A DNA stretch of 64,000 bases from Candidatus Nanoarchaeia archaeon (GTDB taxonomy: Archaea; Nanobdellota; Nanobdellia; Woesearchaeales; GW2011-AR4). The stretch covers positions 20,249-84,248 of the forward strand of contig DATDOM010000066.1 in NCBI GenBank assembly GCA_035293285.1. The letters are read 5' to 3'. The stretch's first letter is position 1; every line of letters begins with the position of its first letter. Positions 4,508 to 47,574 of this stretch are shown piece after piece. The notes beneath the pieces were generated by a model. It ran no database searches, was not told the origin of the DNA, and worked only from the letters and a program-made list of their open reading frames with translations. The position numbers were made by a program, and so were the translations under genes.

Positions 4508-6286
4508 TTATTTTTTCTGCACTATGTCTGTTATCACTGGCGGCCTGTTGACATTTTCAACCATGACCTTGAAGGCCTTGGATGTTGTGTCCTGCCCGTC
4601 ACTGACACTCACTATCACATCATAAGCGCCCGCGCTTGAGTAATCGGTTTGCCAGGTGAAAACATTGTCTTCCTGCTTGAACCTGCTGTCGCTTATTGAG
4701 TAAGTGAGTTTATCCCTGTCTTCATCAGTTGCAAGGGCAGTTATTACAATCTTGTCTGTTTCCTTGGCGCTGATGTCATTAACATTTTCAAGCACAGGCT
4801 TTCTGTTTACATTATCAACTTCAACTGACCAGATTTTGCTGGCAACTGAAATTCCATCAGTGACATCAGCCTTGACTGTGTGAGTCCCTGCATCATCATA
4901 AGTTGAACTGTAGGTATACTCGCTTTCGGTTCCTGCTTCCTTGCCGTCAAGCTTCCACGAGTATGACAACGGGTCTTTGTTAAGGTCGCTTGCAGACAAG
5001 CTGAATTTCAAGGATTCAGTTTCCTGAATCTTTAGCCCGGTTTCAAGCGGCTTTGCCGAGTCTATAGCCGGCGCTTCCTCTTTCTTGTTTACAATTATTA
5101 ATACATCCCTCTGGGTTGCTGACTCTCCGTCTGATGCAGTCACAGAAACGGTGTACTCGCCTGCATCGCCGTAGGTTGTCTGCCATTGGCCATTTTGGTC
5201 AAGGGGCGAAGTAAAAGTAAATCCTATCTTGTTGTCCTGGTCAGGGTCCTCTGCTTTTGTCTGAAGCTCAACCTTTTCTGTTTCAGATACAACAACGACA
5301 ACCGGCTTTTCATCCGACTTGATTACTTCCTGAGGCACTTTGACTTCGTCATTAGGAGTTTCCTCTGGAACTTCGGTTTGAGTTTCTGTTTCTTCATTTA
5401 CATCCCCAGATGGAGCTTCATCTGTTTTATCTTCTGAAGGCATTGCTCCTTCATTCTCCTTTTCATCAGGAACTGTTTCCTCGACCTCTTCATCCGGAGC
5501 TTCTTCTGTTTCTTTTTCGACAAAAACGTCCTGCTCGGGGAATCCAAGTGCAATGTGATCTTCCATCTTCACGTCAACATCAAAAGATTCTACGTCTTTT
5601 TTCTCTTTTGGTAAAAGGAAAGCAAGCTGTGTATGGGTATCCATTCCAAATTCGCCCGGTTCTGCGCCATGTGTTTTTCCGTCGCTTTGGTATGCAAGAC
5701 CGACGAGTGAAATTGATTTTTCAGTGCTTGACGCAAGCGGTGCCATTTCTACGCTAAACTTTGCGCTGCCTTTATTGTCTGCAGTGAATGAATTTTGTGA
5801 GCCATCCGCTTTTCCGCACGGCATGACTTCCATTTTGTATTCCGGAGGCAGGATTAATTTAGAGCACCATAGTGTATAAACTCCATCAGGAACCAAGTTG
5901 GAAAATTCGAGAGAAAGTGTTGCTTTGCCATCCTTTACCGAGTATTTTCCATTTCCTTCCCCCATAAGCCATTGTTCAAGCGTGAATCCAAGGGATTTAC
6001 CGGCGTCATATGGGCCAAGAGGGTTTTCTGAAAGCTTTAGAGGGTCGTGGGCGACATAATCTTTGGAAGCATATACTTCCTGATTCAAAAACTCAGGATT
6101 TTTTGCGTCATCGCCTTCAATACGCCAAACTTTTTCAGCAGCCTGCGGCCCAGTGTCTTTTGTCTTGCCTTCAGAGGAAACTGTGTTTCCTGTCGGACTA
6201 TAAAGGGTATTGTAAACTTCGCAGCTGCTCAACAAGAACATAGAAAGTATCATCAACACTACAAGAGATTTTGTTTTAAAATTCAT
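4508..6286 (-). CDS. secreted lipoprotein-like protein with PKD-like repeats
   Basis: 592 aa. Lipobox-like LLSSC, unique ~230-aa N-domain, acidic E/D/P/T linker, then 3 PKD-like modules paralogous to those in 2575-4464. Confidence 0.75.
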   Translation of the reverse strand: MNFKTKSLVVLMILSMFLLSSCEVYNTLYSPTGNTVSSEGKTKDTGPQAAEKVWRIEGDDAKNPEFLNQEVYASKDYVAHDPLKLSENPLGPYDAGKSLGFTLEQWLMGEGNGKYSVKDGKATLSLEFSNLVPDGVYTLWCSKLILPPEYKMEVMPCGKADGSQNSFTADNKGSAKFSVEMAPLASSTEKSISLVGLAYQSDGKTHGAEPGEFGMDTHTQLAFLLPKEKKDVESFDVDVKMEDHIALGFPEQDVFVEKETEEAPDEEVEETVPDEKENEGAMPSEDKTDEAPSGDVNEETETQTEVPEETPNDEVKVPQEVIKSDEKPVVVVVSETEKVELQTKAEDPDQDNKIGFTFTSPLDQNGQWQTTYGDAGEYTVSVTASDGESATQRDVLIIVNKKEEAPAIDSAKPLETGLKIQETESLKFSLSASDLNKDPLSYSWKLDGKEAGTESEYTYSSTYDDAGTHTVKADVTDGISVASKIWSVEVDNVNRKPVLENVNDISAKETDKIVITALATDEDRDKLTYSISDSRFKQEDNVFTWQTDYSSAGAYDVIVSVSDGQDTTSKAFKVMVENVNRPPVITDIVQKK

Positions 6287-33617: not shown

Positions 33618-33977
33618 TTAGTGTGCGGGCGCTGGTTCTGGATTAGAATCTGGTTTATTAGACGAACCTGAATAGGACATTGAACTATTGAACCAATCAT
33701 AAAATCCACTCCCAAATTGAATGCCGCTATCTGCCAAATATTTACCAGATTCTCCAAGATCTCCAAAAAATCTTCCTAAGCCATATGGCTGCTTCTTTTT
33801 TTCGTGTCCATTGGCAGCATGGTCCTGTCCCGGGATTCCGTGAGGAGCAGCGCCATGGTCTCCCTGAGCCTGAGCATTATGTATCATTTGTTCCAGTTGC
33901 TGCTGTGACGGCTGCGCCTGTTGCCCACCATGTCCTTCTGGAGATTCTCCGTGTTTTTCTTCTTTGTGTTCTGCCAT
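33618..33977 (-). CDS. His/Gln/Gly-rich small protein (119 aa)
   Basis: Low-complexity H/Q/G/A-rich N-terminal half (HKEEKHGESPEGHGGQQ...DHGAAPHGIPGQDHAANGHE). Noticeably GC-richer than its surroundings. Confidence 0.5.
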   Translation of the reverse strand: MAEHKEEKHGESPEGHGGQQAQPSQQQLEQMIHNAQAQGDHGAAPHGIPGQDHAANGHEKKKQPYGLGRFFGDLGESGKYLADSGIQFGSGFYDWFNSSMSYSGSSNKPDSNPEPAPAH

Positions 33978-34039
33978 TTTGTTTATTGTTGTAATGTAAT
34001 TGTGTTTTAATGTAATTGTGTTTTTAATGTTTTTTGTTC

Positions 34040-34945
34040 TTAAGCAGGGTTTTCTGCCGGCGCTGCTTTTGGAGCCGGAGCTGCTCCTGAAAAATAACTG
34101 TCAAGGGTTTTTCCAATAGCATAAATTGGCTCTGAAACCGCCTTAAGTGAATTTGAATAAAGCTTTCCTGTTACGCTGACAGCACCTTCAATAATTGGAA
34201 GCGGGTTCAATGCTTTTGTCAGATTACTGATTTTTGCATTTTCTGATTTTACGCCTACAATCCTAAATAACAGGCCCATCAGTGAAGAGTATGCAAGCTG
34301 AACCGGCAATCCGTAAGGAGCCAAGAATAGGACGTTAATTGCAGCTAATGGCAATACATATTTCCAGGTCCTCTTGACTGTTTGCATGAATTCTTTTTTG
34401 TACAGTTCACCTAATCCCTTAAAACTGTGGTTTTGGATTATATGATTTAAGCCCATGTATGCTCCGACAAAAACAGCCTGTCCTAGTGCCAATCCACCAA
34501 CAGCAGCAACTCCTCCTAAAATTGGACCACCTAAACCTGTAACATATTGCTTTCCAACTTCAATATTTGAAAACATCCATCCAAGTCCCGGTGCTAATGC
34601 CGTCCCAACAACTGCTTCTTTTCCAGCCTTGACAAAATTAAGAGACTTGTTTTCAAGTTTATCCTGAATCAATGAGCCAAGCGCTAATGGTCCTGCAACA
34701 AGACCGGCATTCAAACTCATCATAGGATTGTAAATTGGCGTGTTTGGAATATTAAATACAAGCGGAGACGCAAGACCTGCTCCCAAAGCTGCAGTTTTCG
34801 AAAGCCCTTCAACTATTTCGTCAAGTGGTTTTTGGGATTTAGGTTCTTTTCCTTGCTCGCCCGTACCGTGGTCGGCATTGTTGCCTTGAGCTTCTTTCAG
34901 TTTTTCTTCGAGTCCTGACGGAGTTTCTTGAGCTTCTTCAGCCAT
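34040..34945 (-). CDS. Gly/Ala-rich integral membrane protein (301 aa)
   Basis: Acidic N-terminus followed by several glycine-zipper-like hydrophobic spans. Confidence 0.6.
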   Translation of the reverse strand: MAEEAQETPSGLEEKLKEAQGNNADHGTGEQGKEPKSQKPLDEIVEGLSKTAALGAGLASPLVFNIPNTPIYNPMMSLNAGLVAGPLALGSLIQDKLENKSLNFVKAGKEAVVGTALAPGLGWMFSNIEVGKQYVTGLGGPILGGVAAVGGLALGQAVFVGAYMGLNHIIQNHSFKGLGELYKKEFMQTVKRTWKYVLPLAAINVLFLAPYGLPVQLAYSSLMGLLFRIVGVKSENAKISNLTKALNPLPIIEGAVSVTGKLYSNSLKAVSEPIYAIGKTLDSYFSGAAPAPKAAPAENPA

Positions 34946-35502: not shown

Positions 35503-36645
35503 TTGAATAAAAGAGGGTTAGCCGGCAGGGAGTACTACATAGACTTATTAGATAAAAATACAAATTCTTTCAGAAAAGGCGAAGGGAAAAATATTGCACT
35601 CCTCGGCCCAAGAAGATGCGGCAAGACTTCAATTCTAAAGCACCACGCCCAAAACTCAGGCGAGATTATTTCAGTTTACATTGACGTTGAAAAAATCAGC
35701 CTGAATCCTGAAAATTTTGCTGTTGAGTTTGTGTGGAATATAATCCAGTCTTCTGTCAAAAAAACCTTTTCAGAAAGCGAGGGCATTGGATTTCTTGAAA
35801 AAATAAAAAAACACGAAGCTGAACTCGGTAAAAATTCTTTTTCTTTGATAAAAACAATCGAAAATGAACTATTAAAAATAAAGCCTGACCAGAGGCTTTT
35901 GGTAAAAAGTGCATTTGATTTTGCCAATGTTTTTGGAACAGAGAAAAACAAAAAAATCCTCCTGTTATTGGACAATTTTGAAAATATTTTTGATTTGAAC
36001 AATTTTTCTCAGGTAAAAGATGCCATTTCATTAATAGATTATGGCGCAAAATATGTCAGATATGTTGTTGCCAGCTCTGCCGTAAGGGAATGCATCTCGC
36101 TTCTGAAAAATTTTGAATGCTTTGAAATAAAGAATCTCGAAAAATCAAAGTGTGTTGAGTTAATTGAAAGCATTATCGGAAATGCTAACAGAAAAGCCTG
36201 TGAAGAAATTTTTTCATTCAGCAAAGGCCATCCGTTTGTTGCGGTCTCCATTGCAAAAAGATTTCTTGAGACAAAAGACGCAAAAAAAGCATTTTTAGTG
36301 GAACTCCTTGTAAAAGACAGTCCTGTCTATAATTACTGCAGCGAATCATACAATTATTATTACAATCGTGCACGCGGCCAGACTCTGCTCAAGACTATCC
36401 TGAAAGTTGTTGCAAGTGAAGAGCTCAGGCTAAGCGAGATAGCAAAGAAAATTTACAGAAGCGCGCCTGTAACAAAGGCAATTCTTGAAAGGCTAATTGA
36501 TGCGGATATAATCCACAAAAAAGACAATAAATTCTATTTTGGAGATGACGTTCTTAGGGTGTGGGTCAAACTGACTTCTGATGGTTACGATTTCATTGAT
36601 TCTATTGATGATAAAATTTTGGAGGAAGCTGGCAAAAAACTATGA
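35503..36645 (+). CDS. Arch_ATPase (PF01637-like) AAA-type NTPase with C-terminal wHTH
   Basis: TTG start. LAGREYYIDLL, Walker A LLGPRRCGKTS, Walker B-like ILLLLDNFE, and a C-terminal LRLSEIAKKIYRSAPVTKAILERLIDADII. Confidence 0.75.
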   Translation: MNKRGLAGREYYIDLLDKNTNSFRKGEGKNIALLGPRRCGKTSILKHHAQNSGEIISVYIDVEKISLNPENFAVEFVWNIIQSSVKKTFSESEGIGFLEKIKKHEAELGKNSFSLIKTIENELLKIKPDQRLLVKSAFDFANVFGTEKNKKILLLLDNFENIFDLNNFSQVKDAISLIDYGAKYVRYVVASSAVRECISLLKNFECFEIKNLEKSKCVELIESIIGNANRKACEEIFSFSKGHPFVAVSIAKRFLETKDAKKAFLVELLVKDSPVYNYCSESYNYYYNRARGQTLLKTILKVVASEELRLSEIAKKIYRSAPVTKAILERLIDADIIHKKDNKFYFGDDVLRVWVKLTSDGYDFIDSIDDKILEEAGKKL

Positions 36646-39140
36646 GCAAAAAAAACCTTAGCTGGATTTTTGCAATGATTTTGCTAGCTTTAGTTCCTGC
36701 AGTTTATGCCCAAAGCTGGACTCAAGGAATTGGTTTTGTCGTAATTAATGCGCTTGTAGTTGGGATTGTGTTATTTGTATTGCAGTCATTCCTTATACCA
36801 AACAAGGAGGGTAAAGAAAAAACTGCAATCTGGGTTGTAATAGCAGTAACTTCGCTCTTGATTTCGTGGTTCTATGGACGTGGCGGATTTATCTGGAACA
36901 CTGGGCCCCTTGCAAAATTCTTCAATGTGTACTTATTGGTCAATGCGCTTGTAATCGGAACCTTCCTTTACGTTGTGCTTGGCTTGATGGGATTAAAAGA
37001 AAAGCTTGGCTCCAAGGAAGGAACGACCGGCTACATCATTTTGCTTTTCATAGTATCAGTAATGTTTGCATTCCAGCTTGGCAACCAGTGGATATGGAGC
37101 CAGACAACAGTAGCCAGATTCATAGACTCATTATTTGGAACTGACGGAATTTTAAATCCGAATCCTCCATTGTACAGGCTCTGGGTTTTCCTGTCAAGCG
37201 CAGTCTTGTTATCATTTTTCTTTGCAGGATACCTGCTAAAAGGAGGAGTAAACGGCAAAAACGGTGTAAGCTACGCACTTGCAATTGTCCTTGCTGCAAG
37301 CATGGCAAGCCAGGGTGCAAGCCTTGGTGCAGTCATACAGTTGGGAGAGCTTGTGTTTACAATATTATTTTTCCAGACCGTAAATGAAACATTCGGAAAA
37401 GATAATCAAATAATAGCGGGGTTTGTTTCAATTAGCCTGGTAGCCTGGGCTTCTGCTGCGGCTACCGCATCAATACCCGAGTACAGGGGATTGTTAGGGT
37501 CAATGTTCTGTAAAACTGGATTAATAGAATGCACTCAGCTGGCGGCACAATCGGCTGCAGCAACTGGCGTTTTTGGGTGGATAAAAACGCTTGGGATGTG
37601 GATTCTCATAATAATTGCAGTAATTGTGGTTTTATTATACAAGGCATTTAAAGGCGGCGGAGAGGACAAGAAGAAATGGCTTACAATACTTGCAGTATTA
37701 GCAATCTTAGGGATAATATTGCTGCCAGGATGGATATTCATTCCATTTTTGATTTTCATGGCCATAATAGGGCTGATTGTTTGGGGCATGAGCAGGGGAG
37801 AGAAGAATAGCAGAATTTTTACACTTGGTTTAGGAGGCCTAAAAAAGAAATTGAGTACAATATTTACAAATGCCAAGCTTTATAGGGATGTTCCTGAAGG
37901 AAGGGAGCCTCAAATATTCAAAGAAAATAAACATATGTTCCAGGCACTGGCAAATTATGTGACTCGTTCGGAAATAAATTACAGGTATTGGGCTTTCATC
38001 AAGACCGGAATAAAATTAGGAAATCAGCTTGCCCCAAAGATAGGAAAATTCAATGATCCAAAAAAACTTAGAAAAGATATAATATATTACAGAAGCGGGG
38101 GCACAGTTATAGAAGGCAATAGGCCAATAAAAGTAGAAGGCTGGAACAGGCTAAATCTTGAAGCGGTTAATTTGATGAATCGATTTTACTATTTGATTAG
38201 TATGGCGTATATTGCCGCAGAGTACAACCTCAAAGCAACTAACCAGTACCACACAGAAGCGGCAGAATTTGTTGCAATTGAAGTTGCGGCAAGGGAACTG
38301 TTAGAAAAAATGAAGAGAAATCATGAACAATACAAAAGAAGGTTAGACGCCTATGGCAACCATCATGTCCTAAAAGTCTACAGGGACATAACATTAGACA
38401 TGTCAAACCCAACAGGGGAAGTGGAGCAGCATCCGCAAATATTCGCCAGGCCCGGCGCTGCATTTGATATGGGAAACCAAGATCCCGCTGTAAAAAATAA
38501 TGTAGCCAAAGCGGACCAATTTGGAGTTGGCGAGGAATTAAACCAGTATGGGGAAGTAGTAGCTGACATAATTGGACAAAAAGCAAAGGATCCAAGAGAA
38601 TATAAAAAACCAAGAAGGATTGTTAATCCGGAGGATATAATAAATTTCCCGGATTTTATACAATTCATGGAAAACATCTCAAAGGATTGGAAAGGATTGG
38701 CAGAAGATGTAAGATACGGACTGCACCACCCAAAAAGCAGAACTTTAGGTGCTTATATAACTGCTTATAGAGAACATAAATATTATCCTGAATGGGCTGA
38801 TGAGCTAATAAAACCAACCGGTTCGCCAACTCAAGAAGACCCTGCTATAGATTACAGGGCCATGGCAGACCCGGGTAAAAATATTTATTGGGGAAGAAAG
38901 AACTATTACGATGGAAGCGAGGGAATTCCAAGAGATAATCCCTATCCGAACCTATGCTCTTTAGGCTTGACCAAATACTTGAAATTACGTGTTGAATTGG
39001 ACATAAAGGACCATCATAAAGTAGAGGAATTTTTGTACAAGTATCCGGCTGATAGCGGAGTCCCGGAAAAAAAGATGCCTGGCCAGCCAATAGGAATACA
39101 TTTGTCTGACAAGCCTCCAGAGCCGGCACAAGGTGGATAG
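36642..39140 (+). CDS. 832-aa polytopic membrane protein with a ~450-aa soluble C-terminal region of unknown family
   Basis: ATGA overlap with the ATPase gene. Signal-like N-terminus (ILLALVPAVYA-QS), about 10 hydrophobic spans to about aa 385, and a C-terminal domain shared with the 972-aa protein. Confidence 0.8.
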   Translation: MSKKNLSWIFAMILLALVPAVYAQSWTQGIGFVVINALVVGIVLFVLQSFLIPNKEGKEKTAIWVVIAVTSLLISWFYGRGGFIWNTGPLAKFFNVYLLVNALVIGTFLYVVLGLMGLKEKLGSKEGTTGYIILLFIVSVMFAFQLGNQWIWSQTTVARFIDSLFGTDGILNPNPPLYRLWVFLSSAVLLSFFFAGYLLKGGVNGKNGVSYALAIVLAASMASQGASLGAVIQLGELVFTILFFQTVNETFGKDNQIIAGFVSISLVAWASAAATASIPEYRGLLGSMFCKTGLIECTQLAAQSAAATGVFGWIKTLGMWILIIIAVIVVLLYKAFKGGGEDKKKWLTILAVLAILGIILLPGWIFIPFLIFMAIIGLIVWGMSRGEKNSRIFTLGLGGLKKKLSTIFTNAKLYRDVPEGREPQIFKENKHMFQALANYVTRSEINYRYWAFIKTGIKLGNQLAPKIGKFNDPKKLRKDIIYYRSGGTVIEGNRPIKVEGWNRLNLEAVNLMNRFYYLISMAYIAAEYNLKATNQYHTEAAEFVAIEVAARELLEKMKRNHEQYKRRLDAYGNHHVLKVYRDITLDMSNPTGEVEQHPQIFARPGAAFDMGNQDPAVKNNVAKADQFGVGEELNQYGEVVADIIGQKAKDPREYKKPRRIVNPEDIINFPDFIQFMENISKDWKGLAEDVRYGLHHPKSRTLGAYITAYREHKYYPEWADELIKPTGSPTQEDPAIDYRAMADPGKNIYWGRKNYYDGSEGIPRDNPYPNLCSLGLTKYLKLRVELDIKDHHKVEEFLYKYPADSGVPEKKMPGQPIGIHLSDKPPEPAQGG

Positions 39141-40958
39141 ATGGCAGATACAAACCAAGATAATCCAGAATCAGGTTCGCCCGTTGTGAAGATAGATTTA
39201 GTCATAAATATTTTGACCCGAATCACAACGCTTCAAGACCAGATGGAAGAAACAATAGATACAAAGAATAAGTACAGATTGCTGCTTTTTGAGCCCAAAT
39301 TATTGTTTGGATACAAAAAAGACTTTGCTGCATTTTTTGTTGCTTTTAACCTATACAAAGATTACTGCTCTTCTGTAATGGGCGCTGAAGAAATAAGGAG
39401 AGAGATAAATAAAATAAGGATATATGATGCGCGTTTAGCCCTTAGCATAGAAAACTTATTGGGCTTATCAAATAGTTATGGCTCTTTATTCTCCGGTTTG
39501 ATTGCTGCATTACGGCAAGGCAAAGAGTATTTTGTTTCATATATTTCTACCCATGACAAAGAATTGGCTTTAAGGGCCAAATCAATAAGCAACAATAGAG
39601 TATCGAGCCAATTGACCTTCCTGTTTTCCTCCATTAGCGGCCGAGAAGTTGATTACCTCCTTTCATACAAAAATGATTCCGGCAACTGGGGCAATTACTC
39701 CATAAATAATAGGATAGAATTTTTCATATCAAGAGTGAATTTGTACTTAAGAGGAGGCAATGAAAGCAATAATCAATTTAAGGGATTGTTAAATGATTTT
39801 GGTGACAAGGAAGTTACCGTTTCAATCTTGAAAAACAAAGCTGTCATGTACTTGTGGAAATATAATGAACAAATAAAATTCCTTAATTCCCTTATAGAGT
39901 TATGTAAAAAATCAGGAGAGAGCGGAGAATGGAAAGGGTTTTTTGGGAAGCAGGGATTTTGGACTAATATTGACAAATATGCCGCCAGATTGGAAAAAGA
40001 GTTTTCCAATGAGGAGTTCGCAAAAACCATAATTTCAAAAAAGAAAGAAATTGGGGAGAGCCCGGAAGGGTGGGGGGGCAGTTGGAACGGAGTGAATCTT
40101 GCGACTCCCGGATTATTGAATAATTTGCTGTATAAATTAAATCATCCTTCTTTTCAAAGGAAAATGATAATAATTCCGGCATCCCAGGAATTAAGAATAA
40201 TTTTTGAGAATAGGGAAGCTGTATTGAAAGAAAACAGGGATAATCATATAAAAGAACTTATTGGAATCATAACAAATACAGGCGGTTTAAAATCTAAAAA
40301 AAGAATAGCTGAAAATTTCAGGTCAGAATTAATAGGTTATAGTAAAAAATCAATAGAGCGTTTGGGTGAAGATTTATCCAGGTTCGCGAAGGTTGCAAAT
40401 GAGCCGTTGTTATCTTATGAGGAATTCATGGAAGAGTTTGACAAATACACTTTAAAAATAGACCCGCAAACACTCTGGAGCAGCATAAGCCGTTTGTCAG
40501 GCATAATGAAATCAAATGACAGTTACACAGCAGATTCCATAAACAACTTTAAATTTCTAAGAAGCATAAGCGATTTGACTTTGGTTAGTGGCGCAGACTT
40601 GTCAGCAAAGCAAGCATTGTTAAAGATAGAGATGCTTAGGAGCTTTGACCACTTAAACGATGAAGACATAAAAAATTTGGAAAGCTTGGTTCCAAAAGCT
40701 GAAGGCTTATTGGTTAAACTAAATAATTTAGGAGAATATTTAAAATCCAAAATAAATGAGAGTTACACTCTCAGACCTGAGTTTATCCTGAATCTGGACT
40801 TTAATAATATCAGAATAAGAAATTTAAACAATGATTTAGGTTATGTGAGAAAAGTTCTCTTAAGGCTCGTTAAGGATTTCAGGATTAAAGAAGTTGCAGA
40901 TCAATCTTACTTTACCAGCAGTACGAAAGATAATAGAATAGAAAACAGGGGTGCTTAA
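39141..40958 (+). CDS. 605-aa soluble helical protein, unknown family
   Basis: The ATG directly abuts the upstream TAG, with AGGTGG 5-10 nt upstream. No motif recognised. Confidence 0.75.
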   Translation: MADTNQDNPESGSPVVKIDLVINILTRITTLQDQMEETIDTKNKYRLLLFEPKLLFGYKKDFAAFFVAFNLYKDYCSSVMGAEEIRREINKIRIYDARLALSIENLLGLSNSYGSLFSGLIAALRQGKEYFVSYISTHDKELALRAKSISNNRVSSQLTFLFSSISGREVDYLLSYKNDSGNWGNYSINNRIEFFISRVNLYLRGGNESNNQFKGLLNDFGDKEVTVSILKNKAVMYLWKYNEQIKFLNSLIELCKKSGESGEWKGFFGKQGFWTNIDKYAARLEKEFSNEEFAKTIISKKKEIGESPEGWGGSWNGVNLATPGLLNNLLYKLNHPSFQRKMIIIPASQELRIIFENREAVLKENRDNHIKELIGIITNTGGLKSKKRIAENFRSELIGYSKKSIERLGEDLSRFAKVANEPLLSYEEFMEEFDKYTLKIDPQTLWSSISRLSGIMKSNDSYTADSINNFKFLRSISDLTLVSGADLSAKQALLKIEMLRSFDHLNDEDIKNLESLVPKAEGLLVKLNNLGEYLKSKINESYTLRPEFILNLDFNNIRIRNLNNDLGYVRKVLLRLVKDFRIKEVADQSYFTSSTKDNRIENRGA

Positions 40959-43877
40959 GTGGCAGACGCGCATGGTGCAGAAGGTGGAGGAGATGCCAAG
41001 GGAGGAGGCAAAGCAGGCTTTTTTTCTGAATGGGTAGAAATTGGCAGGAATTGGTTTAAAAGAAAAGTACCATTTGTAGACAGGTTCAGATTTGGGAGAA
41101 GGAAAGTAGGTGACAGGCCGCATCCAATTCAATATGAGCTTCAGAGCACCTGGATAGAAAAAAATACCAATTTGTTTGGCACCACTTTAAAGAGGGTAGA
41201 AAACGAGTGGGCTAAATTGGCAGTTTCAATGGGTGAAGGGCAAGACCCTAACAAAGGTTTTCTGGAAGATCCTCAAGGGATAGTTCCTCTTTACCAGAAA
41301 CTCGGGGTTTATGCCGACTTGGAAAGGATACCCCTGGAAGTAAACTGGTTTGAAACAGGAACGGGATTTCATGAAAGCAAGTTGTCATTTGAGATGCCTG
41401 AAGAAGCTGTTTGGAGAAAATATGGCTGGATAGAAGATGAGGTAAAAAAATTAAAGAAAAACTCAAGCAAAATCAAAGCAATAAGTGATAATGTAAAGAT
41501 AAAGAGGATTTCACTTCACCCGGGAACAGTCATTCATGAAGGCAAAATTGAAGAAGATATCTATGCTTTTGGCATTGAAAGGGCAAAACAAATGATAGGG
41601 GAAATGACAGCTTATTCTGAAATACTTAGCGTAGGCTATTTAAGACAAAAAGGTGTCGGCACTGAAGTTAGAACAAAAATTGATAATCTGATAAAACAGT
41701 TTACTTCGTTATTCCAGCAAATTGCGGAAATGGAAAATGAGGCATATAGTTTGCTCCAGGATTTGACCGGTGATGCCAAAATACTAAAAGGAAGATGGGA
41801 ACTTATAGCTGACCAGACTGCGCCAGAGTCAACAAACGTATCAACAATAAGATTTCCCCATACTTTTAGAATTATCAGGCAATATGCACTTCTGGAAATA
41901 ACTGAAAAAATAGAGAAAAAAACCGGAATTACTACTGAGAGCTATGAAAATAAAAGAGTAGTTACTTCTTACATAGATCCCAATCAGCATACTGCTACCA
42001 GTAATATTTATACAATAGAAAAGCAGAAACTTAATGATGAATTGGCATCAATAAACAGCATTATGACTGACGAATTGAAGTATATAGTTCGTGATATTCA
42101 GAGTTTTGAGCAATTGGTTAACAATACTGGAAGTTTTGAGAATGTCATAAAAGGGATTATCAGAGCAGAAAGAAATAATTTGATTGGCGTTCTTAACAGC
42201 ACCGACCTGCCAGAAGCCAAAATACAGAATATAACAGATTTGATTACTCATCCCGATCCTACTTTGGCCAGTTTGCTCGAAGAATCACTCAAAAATATTG
42301 TTTCAATAATTTCAAGTGTGGTAAACTCCAGAAAATCCGCTGACGAAAAAGTGGATGATATAGAAAACTCGTTGCTCAATTCATTTAGTGCAATCAGGAT
42401 TATTGAAGAGTTCCTTGCATATCACGAAAATGACGTAGTGGGTATTCTAAAGGAACGGGATGATAGGGGGAATAAAAGAAAAGTTGATGATGTTTTTGAG
42501 GATATCAGGCATGTTTTACTCCCAAATGAATTGGCCACAAGCAGTATTATAGACACCATATTAAATGATAAAAATCATCGGGCTCAAATAAAAGCATTAA
42601 TCAATAAACAAAAGGATGAGTTTGTAACGGCAAGAACCATAATTCGATTCATACGAATTTCTGTAGTGAGGAAAAATCTAGATGATAAAGAAGCTGGATT
42701 AAAAACAAGGCTGGAAATACTCAATATCAAGAAATCTGACATTGAATTAAAATTTCTGGAAGAAAAAAAGAGGCTTCAGGATAGGTTAGACGAGATAGAT
42801 GGTATAAGTCCCCGCGATATGCAGGATATTCTTGATTCTATCAGGCCAAAAATTAGCGCCCCGAATGCCGGGACAAAAGGTTTTTACAAAAGACCGGAAG
42901 AGCTAAAGTATGGTTTAGATGAATATGGGTACCCGTTAGAAATTGATCCAGGTAATGGGATAGTGCTAATTGATAAATGGTGGCATGAGATAGGCCAAAA
43001 TGAATGGCAAATGAAGACAATTGCACAAAAACATGAAGGTGCGGATACATTAAGAAAAAATTTGGGCGTTACTGTCAATTATACTTCCAATCCTGGTGAA
43101 AAACCAAAATTAGGGGATATAAACATTGCCGGAACTCCTGCCAGAGAAATACGTTATGTAACTGATCAAAGATTTATAGGGCAGGTCGATATACTTGACT
43201 TAAGTGCGTTTATGTATTCTTATTGGGATGCTGTAAGAGATGATTTAAGGGATGGCAGATACCACCCCCATTCAAAAAGTACTGGTGACTATGTTATAGA
43301 AGCTATGGGGGGATATCATAAGGATTTGGGCGCACCTTATTCCAGAGACTGGGTTCCTGGCTTAAAAAGCAAGGGAATGTTTTTTTCGAGAAGGGGTGTT
43401 GTGCCATTAAAGCCAATTCAACTTCACATAGACGTGCCAACAGAGCTTATTAAAAGTAATCCTGAAACTTTCAATAAGCATATCCCTGATGATGAGAAAA
43501 CAGTAACAAGGGATTACGCCATGAGAATGCCGGACGGCAGTGTAGAAAAAGGAGAAAGGCATCCTTCAAAGTATAATCCAGCATTTGATAGAAGGTCGTG
43601 GCACATTGAAAAATATGTACATTGGGGAAGAATGTATTATTGGGAATGGGCAGGCGGAATAAACAGGTGGTCAGAAAATACATTCCCCCATGTTTCAACC
43701 AGAGGATTGGCATTGTACATAGCCCATCTTGCATCTACAGACACTTATTATTATAAAGAAGCAGAAGAGGCAATCGAAGGGCATTCGTTTGATTACGGAA
43801 CCAGGGGAATGGGTGCATTCCCAATTATGAACCCATTAAGCGGAAAAAACATAGTAGGGGAAGGCACAGAAAATTAA
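40959..43877 (+). CDS. 972-aa protein, unknown family: Gly/Lys-rich N-terminus, long helical middle, conserved C-terminal domain
   Basis: The GTG start directly abuts the upstream TAA, with AGGGGTG upstream. The C-terminal ~320 aa are paralogous to the C-terminus of the 832-aa protein. Confidence 0.8.
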   Translation: MADAHGAEGGGDAKGGGKAGFFSEWVEIGRNWFKRKVPFVDRFRFGRRKVGDRPHPIQYELQSTWIEKNTNLFGTTLKRVENEWAKLAVSMGEGQDPNKGFLEDPQGIVPLYQKLGVYADLERIPLEVNWFETGTGFHESKLSFEMPEEAVWRKYGWIEDEVKKLKKNSSKIKAISDNVKIKRISLHPGTVIHEGKIEEDIYAFGIERAKQMIGEMTAYSEILSVGYLRQKGVGTEVRTKIDNLIKQFTSLFQQIAEMENEAYSLLQDLTGDAKILKGRWELIADQTAPESTNVSTIRFPHTFRIIRQYALLEITEKIEKKTGITTESYENKRVVTSYIDPNQHTATSNIYTIEKQKLNDELASINSIMTDELKYIVRDIQSFEQLVNNTGSFENVIKGIIRAERNNLIGVLNSTDLPEAKIQNITDLITHPDPTLASLLEESLKNIVSIISSVVNSRKSADEKVDDIENSLLNSFSAIRIIEEFLAYHENDVVGILKERDDRGNKRKVDDVFEDIRHVLLPNELATSSIIDTILNDKNHRAQIKALINKQKDEFVTARTIIRFIRISVVRKNLDDKEAGLKTRLEILNIKKSDIELKFLEEKKRLQDRLDEIDGISPRDMQDILDSIRPKISAPNAGTKGFYKRPEELKYGLDEYGYPLEIDPGNGIVLIDKWWHEIGQNEWQMKTIAQKHEGADTLRKNLGVTVNYTSNPGEKPKLGDINIAGTPAREIRYVTDQRFIGQVDILDLSAFMYSYWDAVRDDLRDGRYHPHSKSTGDYVIEAMGGYHKDLGAPYSRDWVPGLKSKGMFFSRRGVVPLKPIQLHIDVPTELIKSNPETFNKHIPDDEKTVTRDYAMRMPDGSVEKGERHPSKYNPAFDRRSWHIEKYVHWGRMYYWEWAGGINRWSENTFPHVSTRGLALYIAHLASTDTYYYKEAEEAIEGHSFDYGTRGMGAFPIMNPLSGKNIVGEGTEN

Positions 43878-43898: not shown

Positions 43899-44690
43899 AT
43901 GACAAAAATATCATTCCTCGGAACAGGAAAAATGGCGGCAGCATTGATTAGCTCAATCCATAAAAAAGATTTTGTCAAGTCAATTATTGCAAGCGGAAGA
44001 AATGAAGAAAATCTTGATAAAATAAAAAATAAATTCAATATCAAGACAACCAAAGACAACAAAGAAGCTGCAAGAAATTCGGATGTGATTTTTCTCTGCG
44101 TCAAGCCGCAGGATTTTGATTTGTTATTAAATGAAATAAAAAGTGAAGTAAAAAGCCAGTTAATTGTCTCCATTGCCGCAGGAATAAGAACAATCCACAT
44201 TGAAAAAATTCTTGGCAAGAGAAGAGTAATACGAGTGATGCCTAATGTCAACTGCCTTGTCGGCGAGATGGCTGCAGGATTTGCAGGCGGAAAATACGCA
44301 AAAAAAGAAGATATGGATTTAGTTGAAAAAATTTTAAGTGTATCCGGGCTTGCAATAAAAGTAAAAGAAAACCAGCTGGATGCGCTTTCAACTATAAGCG
44401 GCTGCGGTCCTGCATTTTTTGCTTATTTCATAAAACATATGTGTGACGCTGCTGCAAAAAAAGGACTGCCAAGAGAAACTGCATATAAGCTTGCTGCAAA
44501 AACACTGCAAGGCACTGGAAAGCTTCTTTTGGAAAAAAACCTGAGTCCGGATGAATTGATTAAAATGGTTACATCAAAAAAAGGCGTCACCCTTGCCGGG
44601 CTTGAAGTGCTTGAAAAGGAAAAAGCTGGTAAAATCCTAGAAAAAATGATATTCGCAGCGCATAAAAGGAGTCTTGAGTTAGGTAAATAA
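43899..44690 (+). CDS. proC: pyrroline-5-carboxylate reductase
   Basis: ISFLGTGKMAAALI, VIFLCVKPQD, VIRVMPN and SGCGPAFF motifs. Confidence 0.9.
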   Translation: MTKISFLGTGKMAAALISSIHKKDFVKSIIASGRNEENLDKIKNKFNIKTTKDNKEAARNSDVIFLCVKPQDFDLLLNEIKSEVKSQLIVSIAAGIRTIHIEKILGKRRVIRVMPNVNCLVGEMAAGFAGGKYAKKEDMDLVEKILSVSGLAIKVKENQLDALSTISGCGPAFFAYFIKHMCDAAAKKGLPRETAYKLAAKTLQGTGKLLLEKNLSPDELIKMVTSKKGVTLAGLEVLEKEKAGKILEKMIFAAHKRSLELGK

Positions 44691-44715
44691 ATTCTTAAAA
44701 ACATTTAATAATCGA

Positions 44716-46014
44716 ATGAGTACACTAAAAACAATGATTGAAAAGGCCAAAATTGCAAGGGAAGCGACGCTTAAATTAGCCGCGCTGAAGAATGAAGTAA
44801 AAAACAAGGCGCTTGTTGCAATAGCTGCTGCCATAAAGAAAAATTCTGGCAGGATAATTGGCGCAAACGAAAAAGATGTCACTGAATCAAAAAAAGCAAA
44901 GATTAGTGATGTGCTGATAAAAAGATTGCTCATTGATGGAGATAAAATAAGTGAGATTATTGAAGAAATTGAAAGCGTTGCCAAGCTTGATGATCCAAAC
45001 GGAAAAATTCTGTCACAAGTGGAGCTTGATAGAGGCCTCATGCTTTATCAGGAAACCTGCCCAATAGGGGTAATTGGGGCAATTTTTGAGTCAAGGCCTG
45101 ACGCGCTTGTCCAGATCGCAGCCCTTTGCATAAAATCCGGAAATGCTGTGATTCTGAAAGGCGGTTCTGAAGCAAAAAATTCAAACAGGATTTTAGTAGA
45201 AATAATTTCAGATGCCTGTGAAAAAAATGGAATTCCAAAAGGAGCTGTTCAGTTAATAGAAACAAGGGACGAAGTATCTGAAATGCTGAAGATGAATGAT
45301 TTTATCAGCATGATAATTCCAAGAGGGAGCAATAATTTTGTAAAATATGTTCAGCAAAATACGAGCATTCCCGTGCTTGGTCATTCTGATGGGATATGCC
45401 ATGTTTTCATTGATGAGTCTGCTGAAATGAAAAAAGCGCTTGACATTGCTTATGACGCAAAATGCCAGTATCCTGCTGTCTGCAATGCAATGGAGACTTT
45501 GATTGTCCACAAAAATATTGCAAAAAAATTCCTGCCGGAGATTGCAAAAAAATATGCAGGTTCAAAAGTAGAAGTCAGAGGAGACGAAGAAACAGGAAAA
45601 ATACTGAAAGGAATAAAAAAAGCAACAGAACTGGACTGGAAAACAGAATACAATGATTTAGTGCTTTCAATAAAGATTGTTAATAATTTAAGCGATGCAG
45701 TTAGCCATATCAACAAATACGGCTCAAAACATACTGAGGCAATAGTCACAGAAAACAAAAAAAACGCTGAAGAATTCATGGATTTGGTTGATGCGGCATC
45801 AGTAATGTGGAACGCGTCAACAAGATTTGCCGATGGGTTTAGGTACGGAAAAGGGGCAGAAGTAGGAATAAGCACTTCAAAAATTCACGCAAGAGGGCCA
45901 GTAGGGCTTGAAGGCCTTGTGATTTACAAATACAAGCTGGTTGGACACGGCCAGATTGTAGGAGATTACAGTGGAAAAAATGCAAAAAAGTTTTTGCATA
46001 AAAAAATTAAGTGA
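44716..46014 (+). CDS. proA: glutamate-5-semialdehyde dehydrogenase
   Basis: 432 aa. GVIGAIFESRPDA, ILKGGSEA, CNAMETLIVH, GSKHTEAIVT and NASTRFADG motifs. Confidence 0.9.
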   Translation: MSTLKTMIEKAKIAREATLKLAALKNEVKNKALVAIAAAIKKNSGRIIGANEKDVTESKKAKISDVLIKRLLIDGDKISEIIEEIESVAKLDDPNGKILSQVELDRGLMLYQETCPIGVIGAIFESRPDALVQIAALCIKSGNAVILKGGSEAKNSNRILVEIISDACEKNGIPKGAVQLIETRDEVSEMLKMNDFISMIIPRGSNNFVKYVQQNTSIPVLGHSDGICHVFIDESAEMKKALDIAYDAKCQYPAVCNAMETLIVHKNIAKKFLPEIAKKYAGSKVEVRGDEETGKILKGIKKATELDWKTEYNDLVLSIKIVNNLSDAVSHINKYGSKHTEAIVTENKKNAEEFMDLVDAASVMWNASTRFADGFRYGKGAEVGISTSKIHARGPVGLEGLVIYKYKLVGHGQIVGDYSGKNAKKFLHKKIK

Positions 46015-46020
46015 TTTTTA

Positions 46021-46803
46021 ATGGCAAGAAACATAAAAGCAAAAAATGTACTGATAAAAATCGGCACAAACACCCTGACCAATAATGAAGGTGATTTGGA
46101 CAATGCAGCAATAAAAAATATTGTAAACCAAATTGCAGACATAAAGAAAAAAGGGAAAAATGTAGTGCTTGTAACAAGCGGCGCAATAGGCGCAGGAATG
46201 AAAGAGCTTAACTTAAAATCAAAGCCGCAGGATATTACTATGAGGCAGGTTTGCGCTGCTGTGGGCCAAAGCATTCTGATGGACACTTACCAGTCCTTAT
46301 TCGGAAAACATAACATAAAAATTGCCCAGATTCTTTTAACTTACAGTGATTTCTCCAACCAAAAAGTTTTTTCAAATTTCCAGAAAGGAATTAGCAAAAT
46401 GCTTGAGATGGGAATAGTCCCCATAATAAATGAGAATGACCCAATTTCAATTGATGAAATAGGCCCTTCATTTGGAGACAACGATATGCTTTCTGCAATG
46501 ATTGCCACAAGCCTCGATATTCAACTGCTTTTAATACTTACAAATGTCGACGGGCTTTTTGACAGGAATCCAAAGGAAAACGGCGCAGTGCTGATAAATG
46601 AGATAGGGGATATTGAAAAATGCAAGAAATATGTCGATGACAAATCAAGCAGCCTTGGAGTCGGCGGGATGAGAACAAAGATTAAAGCTGCAGAGATGGC
46701 TGCAAAAAAAGGCATACCAACAATTATTGCCAACGGAAAATCCAGAAATGTGCTATTAAAGATTTTTGAAAATGAAGAAGTCGGGACCATGTTCCCTGCA
46801 TAA
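46021..46803 (+). CDS. proB: glutamate 5-kinase (no PUA domain)
   Basis: VLIKIGTNTLT, VLVTSGAIGAG, PIINENDPIS, FGDNDMLSA and GVGGMRTKIKAA motifs. Confidence 0.9.
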   Translation: MARNIKAKNVLIKIGTNTLTNNEGDLDNAAIKNIVNQIADIKKKGKNVVLVTSGAIGAGMKELNLKSKPQDITMRQVCAAVGQSILMDTYQSLFGKHNIKIAQILLTYSDFSNQKVFSNFQKGISKMLEMGIVPIINENDPISIDEIGPSFGDNDMLSAMIATSLDIQLLLILTNVDGLFDRNPKENGAVLINEIGDIEKCKKYVDDKSSSLGVGGMRTKIKAAEMAAKKGIPTIIANGKSRNVLLKIFENEEVGTMFPA

Positions 46804-46863
46804 TGAATATAGAAATGTTTTTAAGCATCTGGTTGCGGATTGATTAAGAAAGAGAGGTGCCTT

Positions 46864-47574
46864 ATGGAATATATTTTAAAAAAAAAGCCGAAGAACTGCA
46901 CAATAATTGAGGGTTTTCCGGGATTTGGCCTTGTTGGAACAATAGCATCAGAGTTCTTAATTGAGCACTTGAAAACTGAGCAGATTGGAAAAATAGTTTT
47001 TAACCAGATTCCGGCGCTTGTTGCCATTCACGAGGACAAAGTTGTCGAGCCTTTTGGGATTTTTTACAACGAAAAATACAACCTGCTCATTATACACGCG
47101 ATTTCAGCTGCCCCAAAGCATGAGTGGGACTTTGCTGAGACAATAGCAAGAATTGCACTTGAGTTAAGCGCCGAGGAGATAATATCTCTTGAAGGAGTAG
47201 GGGCTACTGAAGACAGCGAGGGCTGCAGGGTATTCTATTACGCAAGCGATGAGAAAAGCGCAAAAGCGCTTGAAAAGCTGGATGTAAAGCCGCTCAAGGA
47301 AGGGATAATCATGGGAGTTACAGGCGCGCTTCTTTTAAGGGCAGAAAAGACTCCAATGTGCTGCTTATTTGCAGAGACCCATTCAAACCTTCCCGACAGC
47401 AAGGCAGCTGCAAAAATAATTGAAGTGCTTGACAAATACATTGGAATGGAACTCGACACAAAGCCGCTTTTGCAGCAGGCTGAGAAATTTGAAGAGAAGG
47501 TAAAGATGATAATGCAAAAAAGCCAGGAAGCCCAGGAAATAAGCGACAAGAAAAAGCTGAGTTATTTGGGATAA
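46864..47574 (+). CDS. PAC2-family proteasome assembly chaperone
   Basis: The ATG at 46864 gives MEYILKKKPKNCTIIEGFPGFGLVGTIA, the typical PAC2 N-terminal motif. Confidence 0.75.
   Translation: MEYILKKKPKNCTIIEGFPGFGLVGTIASEFLIEHLKTEQIGKIVFNQIPALVAIHEDKVVEPFGIFYNEKYNLLIIHAISAAPKHEWDFAETIARIALELSAEEIISLEGVGATEDSEGCRVFYYASDEKSAKALEKLDVKPLKEGIIMGVTGALLLRAEKTPMCCLFAETHSNLPDSKAAAKIIEVLDKYIGMELDTKPLLQQAEKFEEKVKMIMQKSQEAQEISDKKKLSYLG

Follow-up and report, generated by a model that had tools for sequence, protein, structure and literature searches.

The window, a 64,000-nucleotide (nt) stretch of contig DATDOM010000066.1 from a Candidatus Nanoarchaeia archaeon (assembly GCA_035293285.1, positions 20,249 to 84,248 of the forward strand), contains a four-gene operon in which an 832-amino-acid (aa) membrane protein and a 972-aa soluble protein carry the same C-terminal domain of ~170-180 residues. 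This domain is a real protein family that lies outside every library searched and qualifies for description as a family of its own. The two proteins are ancient paralogs, and the best explanation overall, to which we assign about an even chance, is that the membrane-anchored member docks its soluble partner on the cytoplasmic side of the membrane. The source genome has a size of 1.76 Mb and is 85% complete (the window is its contig C66), and the operon is made up of the following genes:

35503-36645, forward strand: gene 1, a P-loop ATPase of 380 aa that has a winged helix at its C-terminus (Pfam matches)
36642-39140, forward strand: gene 2, the 832-aa membrane protein (open reading frame, ORF)
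39141-40958, forward strand: gene 3, a 605-aa orphan protein (ORF)
40959-43877, forward strand: gene 4, the 972-aa soluble protein (ORF)

Homology and conserved signature of the two proteins

A hand alignment of nt 38523-38985 (residues 628-782 of the 832-aa ORF) with nt 42906-43725 (residues 650-923 of the 972-aa ORF) had led the sequence-only reading to propose that both proteins end in the same unrecognised domain, and the shared domain was recovered by BLASTP, by profile alignment and by searches across the two families. BLASTP of the 832-aa against the 972-aa protein returned two collinear high-scoring segment pairs (729-807 vs 869-948, E = 1e-5; 642-706 vs 722-779, E = 2e-4). Using hhalign, the families as first collected (27 and 13 proteins; 25 genomic loci) aligned with a probability of 97.6% (E = 3.4e-12) and broader family alignments with one of 99.5% (E = 2.5e-22, score 149.7), a significant similarity that stands far above the controls (17.7 as the highest score of 30 column-shuffled profiles; 10.9 for the reversed profile). 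Further, the hidden Markov model (HMM) of either family recovered the other family in every independent locus (hmmsearch, E = 1e-7 to 1e-16), and a joint profile matched the two window proteins at 1e-72 and 1e-52. Pairwise identity is just 17-28% and the domain is poor in regular secondary structure, as might be expected of a chance or compositional likeness between loop-rich sequences with much Tyr, Pro and Gly, but that explanation is refuted by the shuffled and reversed controls and opposed by reciprocal searches that are significant in each independent locus and by blocks that are collinear with the same order of secondary structure in both copies; its probability is practically nil.

The second and third of the hand-aligned motif blocks were recovered exactly as written, and the first covers a homologous stretch in a register that is ~7 residues off by the profile alignment, where G628/G657, E632/E661, G637/G667 and D642/D672 are paired. 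An insertion of ~65 aa had been placed in the 972-aa protein between the H-P-x-S and W-G-R blocks, and indeed these blocks are separated by 120 residues compared to 54 in the 832-aa protein, a difference of ~66 aa. The “aromatic/His-rich” character ascribed to the domain is modest (Tyr ~7%, His 3.4-4.3%).

While both proteins do end in the same domain, the similarity is not limited to the C-terminus. A single collinear hhalign alignment of 407 columns, near full-length, connects residues 398-809 of the membrane protein to residues 27-950 of the 972-aa protein (99.5%, E = 1.8e-22), and the helical module at residues 415-490 aligns with residues 47-138 of the 972-aa protein (90%, E = 1.7e-6, score 50.9; shuffled maximum 11.2, controls ≤15.4). 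On these alignments, everything in the membrane protein outside its membrane part has a paralogous counterpart in the 972-aa protein, nearly all of which is covered; the two are duplicated proteins and not unrelated ones that acquired the same module. By the same comparison, the membrane protein is a polytopic membrane part joined to a copy of the soluble body. Three extra pieces of the 972-aa protein, at residues ~321-620 (a stalk of variable length), ~675-725 and ~785-865, are insertions that it gained after the duplication. The 972-aa protein has orthologs of 554 to >1100 aa, in all of which the shared domain is C-terminal, and the long insert, for which PDB searches gave just weak matches of the coiled-coil type, is probably helical or coiled-coil. 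The parts of the two proteins are arranged as follows:

36642-37790, forward strand: N-terminal part of the 832-aa protein, residues 1-383, with a signal-peptide-like segment and ~10 hydrophobic segments (Kyte-Doolittle)
37824-38603, forward strand: predicted cytoplasmic helical module of the 832-aa protein, residues 395-654, a paralog of the module at residues 1-320 of the 972-aa protein (hhalign, AlphaFold2 [AF2])
38604-39137, forward strand: shared C-terminal domain of the 832-aa protein, residues 655-832 (BLASTP, hhalign, hmmsearch; AF2 predicted local distance difference test [pLDDT] ~90)
~38634-38801 and ~38835-39086, forward strand: blocks A and B of the shared domain in the 832-aa protein
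40959-41918, forward strand: N-terminal module of the 972-aa protein, residues 1-320, the paralogous counterpart of residues 395-654 of the 832-aa protein (hhalign)
41919-42845, forward strand: long insert of the 972-aa protein, residues ~321-629, variable in length and not in the membrane paralog (gap in the collinear alignment)
42846-43874, forward strand: C-terminal globular region of the 972-aa protein, residues 630-972 (AF2, homology)
~43161-43304 and ~43554-43829, forward strand: blocks A and B of the shared core in the 972-aa protein
43311-43553, forward strand: family-specific insertion of ~66-80 aa in the 972-aa protein, between the H-P-x-S and W-G-R blocks (alignment)

Conservation was scored across 214 sequences, consisting of 69 membrane-type and 145 soluble-type proteins. 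Common to both families are D-x-R-x-G-x-x-H-x-x-S-x5-Y, A-F-D, G-R, P, G, and D (in 832-aa numbering D689-x-R691-x-G693-x-x-H696-x-x-S699-x5-Y705; A735-F-D737; G751-R752; P769, G775, D804), as well as an Arg at R658 of the 832-aa protein and R732 of the 972-aa protein. The polar positions pair as D689/D762, R691/R764, H696/H769, S699/S772, D737/D877, R752/R891, and D804/D945 (832-aa/972-aa). From the pattern that had been called invariant on the basis of two sequences, D-x-R-x-G, H, S, Y, and G-R are kept, while the P after the H, the G before the Y and the “Y-Y” after W-G-R do not occur in both families; within the W-G-R block the G is invariant and the W is bracketed in the signature, (W)-G-R. 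Three Gly, a Pro, a Tyr and an Asp are strictly invariant in the two copies, and these residues look more like the signature of a fold than a proven active site. Charged positions are near-invariant mainly in the soluble copy, with several falling to 72-86% in the membrane copy.

Family boundaries, duplication and genomic neighbourhood

The domain proved as unrecognised as it had been described, with no match in Pfam, NCBIfam, PADLOC, PHROGs, PDB-profile or Foldseek (PDB, BFVD) searches. In Pfam, the 832-aa protein had no match and the 972-aa protein just Shugoshin_N (E = 0.14), outside of the shared domain, and no common family was matched by the 46 domain sequences (E up to 0.1). NCBIfam returned just TatA/TrbJ noise for the window proteins, the three large proteins had no match in PADLOC-DB 2.0 or PHROGs, and an hmmsearch of the PDB with the family profiles reached best E-values of 0.05-0.34, to unrelated proteins. 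A search of the literature on conserved Woesearchaeota clusters and on PF01637/DUF234 found nothing on this system.

AF2 models of the two copies were built from separate alignments and covered residues 630-972 of the 972-aa protein (pLDDT 76, predicted template modelling score [pTM] 0.72) and residues 395-832 of the membrane protein (pLDDT 89, pTM 0.81), in which the helical module was modelled with helices of 27-50 residues (pLDDT ~90). Over the shared domain, both models have the same order of elements: a strand, a long helix ending at D-x-R-x-G, a short helix that starts near the conserved Tyr, the position of the insertion, a short helix behind A-F-D, a long ordered loop containing W-G-R and N-P-x-P, and two helices. 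The ~66-80-aa insertion of the 972-aa protein was modelled as short helices and a beta-hairpin. Foldseek searches with these models matched nothing in either database, with best E-values against the PDB of 4.7 for the 972-aa domain model and 0.98 for the 395-832 model (long helices only), and of 0.63 against BFVD. The shared domain may be a new fold, provisionally so because the structure search covered the PDB and BFVD only.

An exhaustive profile search, which covered 1.84 billion representatives, retrieved 352 proteins at E ≤1e-3, 333 of them at ≤1e-10, and the family is therefore sharply bounded. The domain was C-terminal in all listed representatives of this search, and just two architectures (membrane-type and soluble-type) occurred among 175 classified proteins (133 new representatives from the exhaustive search and 42 earlier matches). 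Related loci were all from metagenome-assembled genomes (MAGs) of Woesearchaeota/Nanoarchaeota. A phylum-wide sample held the domain in 6 of 301 genomes, all from the same order, and a sample of the GTDB family in 37 of 70 genomes (13 of the 19 that are ≥90% complete), distributed over 4 of 12 genera; within the window's own genus it is nearly universal. Positive genomes almost always have two matches, 3-5 kb apart and on the same strand, each system consistently combining a membrane-anchored with a soluble copy, and a search for a third copy in the window's own genome found none. MAGs labelled ‘uncultured Methanosarcinales archaeon’ (loci L008, L012, L013, L016, L022, L030, and L031) carry the operon of the Woesearchaeota type with the same flanking genes; the Methanosarcinales label of these automatically binned MAGs looks wrong.

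In a maximum likelihood tree of 46 domain copies, one branch (support 100/99) parts the membrane-type from the soluble-type copies and the two subtrees are congruent. Paralogs within a genome are 17-26% identical, and the soluble copy was the better conserved in all 171 locus pairs (42% vs 27% identity). Overall, this indicates one old duplication, as the tree splits the copies by a single branch and the paralogs share so little identity, followed by co-inheritance under asymmetric constraint. Recent duplication or gene conversion was rejected on the same grounds. The 605-aa protein was also tried as a third paralog and rejected (hhalign probability ≤0.3% against every module); it has no family or PDB relative, with just weak compositional matches to apolipoproteins. 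Some MAGs hold two systems of different subtypes, one similar to that of the window and one of a divergent type (L026/L027), as in L010 and L028, which are both from MAG RIFCSPHIGHO2_02_FULL_37_9, and in L012 and L013. Provided that these contigs were binned correctly, they suggest either that the operon as a whole underwent a second, older duplication or that it was transferred between lineages. Several of the genes for the 972-aa or the membrane protein have in-frame stops or a frameshift (L028:3402-6220, with the gene split at ~5690-5786; G334, G345, G348, G337, and G312), and such interrupted copies may be decaying genes or assembly errors.

The order of ATPase, membrane protein, 605-aa protein and 972-aa protein is kept in every locus with enough flank. 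The stop codon of the ATPase gene overlaps the start codon of the membrane protein gene (ATGA), the ATG of the 605-aa gene directly follows the TAG of the membrane protein gene, and the GTG start of the 972-aa gene directly follows the TAA of the 605-aa gene. Gene 1 matches AAA_14 (29.2 bits; Pfam cut-off 27) and, below the cut-off, PF01637 (25.6 bits; cut-off 33.2), and has weak winged helix-turn-helix (wHTH) matches in Pfam at residues 293-347. Its median identity across loci is 61%, compared to 22-31% for the other three genes, making the ATPase gene the slowest-evolving of the operon.

Downstream (3′) of the operon, proC, proA, proB and a gene of the PAC2 family are found even in loci with 25-30% protein identity, a conserved synteny that argues for vertical inheritance and not for a mobile island; the operon is part of a long-lived syntenic block amid otherwise fluid small genomes. 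A mobile or defence island as the principal interpretation was rejected, as the synteny persists in very divergent loci. In a related alternative, the operon would be a conflict accessory system, acting for example in anti-virus defence or in host-cell interaction, with the shared domain as part of a sensor-effector pair in which a membrane effector and a soluble sensor work under the ATPase. Such a system would account for a distribution that is patchy at large scale, both in the phylum sample and among the genera of the GTDB family, for three fast-evolving genes beside a conserved ATPase, and for the weak matches of the ATPase, at the level of the P-loop, to PADLOC mad8 and PDC-S01 (E = 7e-4) and BrxF (E = 0.002). 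It is opposed by the vertical inheritance that the unchanged neighbourhood points to, by the near-universal occurrence within the genus, by the three large proteins that match nothing in PADLOC or PHROGs and by the lack of a recognisable effector domain such as a nuclease or protease; overall, we regard it as quite improbable.

Within the window, the proC-proA-proB and PAC2 block spans 43899-47574, and the same block was observed in L004, L007, L019, L021, and L031. A XerA-type integrase is located ~9 kb downstream in L004, as it is in the window. Upstream of the operon and divergent from it, a 301-aa Gly-rich membrane protein is encoded at 33618-34945 (reverse strand), and homologs occupy the same upstream position in other loci (L005:2104-3915, L007:633-3387, and L011 from position 2), with up to three tandem copies in L007. 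This protein may be a part of the system, or it may have a control region in common with it.

Anchoring and possible roles of the paralog pair

One copy had been described as tethered to the membrane and the other as soluble, in agreement with a Kyte-Doolittle scan that identified ~10 hydrophobic segments in the 832-aa protein and neither a hydrophobic segment nor a signal peptide in the 972-aa protein. The segment that follows the last hydrophobic stretch of the 832-aa protein is strongly basic (K/R-rich). In seven loci (L018, L019, L021, L022, L024, L025, and L029) the membrane gene is split into two adjacent genes, one for the polytopic membrane half and one for the soluble half, which then has two N-terminal hydrophobic helices (e.g., L019:1506-2522 and L019:2522-4117); this natural split separates the membrane part precisely from the paralogous body. 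Both copies probably lie in the cytoplasm, based on the basic segment after the membrane part, the lack of a hydrophobic segment in the 972-aa protein, and the two-helix anchor of the split genes. The N-terminus of the 972-aa protein (FKRKVPFVDRFRFGRRKVGDRPHP; window 40959-41100) was observed to align with the membrane-adjacent basic segment of the membrane protein (LKKKLSTIFTNAKLYRDVPEGREP; 37780-37900), and the soluble paralog may thus have retained a basic stretch of the membrane-proximal kind while lacking the helices that span the membrane.

The sequence-only reading had suggested that the domain lets the two proteins hetero-oligomerise or delivers one activity at two locations. The docking of the soluble copy by the membrane copy can be set out as a series of steps. 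The products of the four coupled genes would form one complex, because the genes are translationally coupled, keep a fixed order and co-occur strictly 1:1. Within it, the faster-evolving membrane copy would be the docking partner, pairing pseudo-symmetrically with the more constrained soluble copy, and this docking would keep the 972-aa protein, with its stalk, on the cytoplasmic side of the membrane. The ATPase/wHTH protein would probably assemble or regulate the complex.

Several points weigh against this proposal. The polar signature (D, R, H, S, D) present in both paralogs fits a ligand or catalytic site equally well as an interface. An odd number of hydrophobic segments separates the K-rich loops, and a manual topology assignment that combined hydropathy with the positive-inside rule is inconsistent for the poorly conserved residues 276-381, so that the cytoplasmic placement rests on indirect arguments. 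Finally, the lack of a known fold depends on the two databases given to Foldseek.

In the main alternative, the shared domain would have an enzymatic activity or bind a ligand, and would do so independently in each protein, so that the same activity or bound molecule would occur both at the membrane and on the soluble protein with its stalk; pairing of the copies would then be beside the point. The polar residues are kept in both paralogs (214 sequences) despite ~23% overall identity, and in the confident AF2 model they are situated at helix ends and in well-defined loops. Against this, the strictly invariant residues are typical determinants of a fold, several charged positions are relaxed in the membrane copy to the frequencies given above, and the searches made found no likeness to any enzyme family or fold. 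We consider independent action of this kind a serious possibility, clearly less probable than docking; the two are not mutually exclusive. A bolder reading, which we think rather unlikely, is that the fold is new and houses a catalytic or ligand-binding site (D/R/H/S/Y/D) that is likewise new. The operon would then be an undescribed, lineage-specific membrane machine of the Woesearchaeota in which a scaffold anchored in the membrane, the soluble paralog with its stalk and the ATPase would serve the cell envelope, cell division or host contact.

Most DPANN archaea have not been cultivated, and large parts of their small genomes lack annotation. In the window, four neighbouring orphan genes became one conserved, vertically inherited system, of which the two largest proteins are duplicates, and this system is a well-defined, lineage-restricted orphan. 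The outcome is a defined family (352 representative clusters) with a clear signature, a confident model and a docking hypothesis that can be tested. Should the fold and the activity of the domain both turn out to be new, or the operon to encode a membrane-associated machine of a new kind, this would be a real addition to the cell biology of the lineage; otherwise the databases still gain a clean new domain family.

Comparison with known systems

The W-G-R block recalls by name the WGR domain (PF05406), which occurs in PARPs and in bacterial MolR-type proteins, but the likeness is confined to the tripeptide. There was no match to PF05406 in either protein (E up to 1) or in the 46 domain sequences (E up to 0.1), and the domain described here differs in that the G alone is invariant, its length is ~170 aa, and its other motifs and predicted secondary structure are different. 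The best Foldseek matches of the helical module were antiparallel coiled-coil hairpins (PI3K p85 iSH2, AhlC, SMC/Rad50 arms, and F-BAR), which were non-significant (E ~1-2, template modelling score 0.1-0.2) and cover the helices only, while the shared C-terminal domain matches nothing. Gene 1, with its P-loop region and C-terminal wHTH, resembles archaeal AAA+-type ATPases with a C-terminal winged helix (PF01637 ATPase_2 / AAA_14), a likeness that concerns this neighbouring gene and not the shared domain; no member of the PF01637 family is known to work together with a membrane protein and a paralogous soluble partner.

Duplicated subunits encoded side by side can form pseudo-symmetric heteromers, as in heterodimeric ABC half-transporters and nitrogenase NifD/NifK. 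The comparison is an analogy, without a relation in sequence or fold, and the heteromer of the present system is proposed. What the window's operon has in common with these cases is that here too old paralogs are found in one operon, co-inherited, with one copy less constrained than the other.

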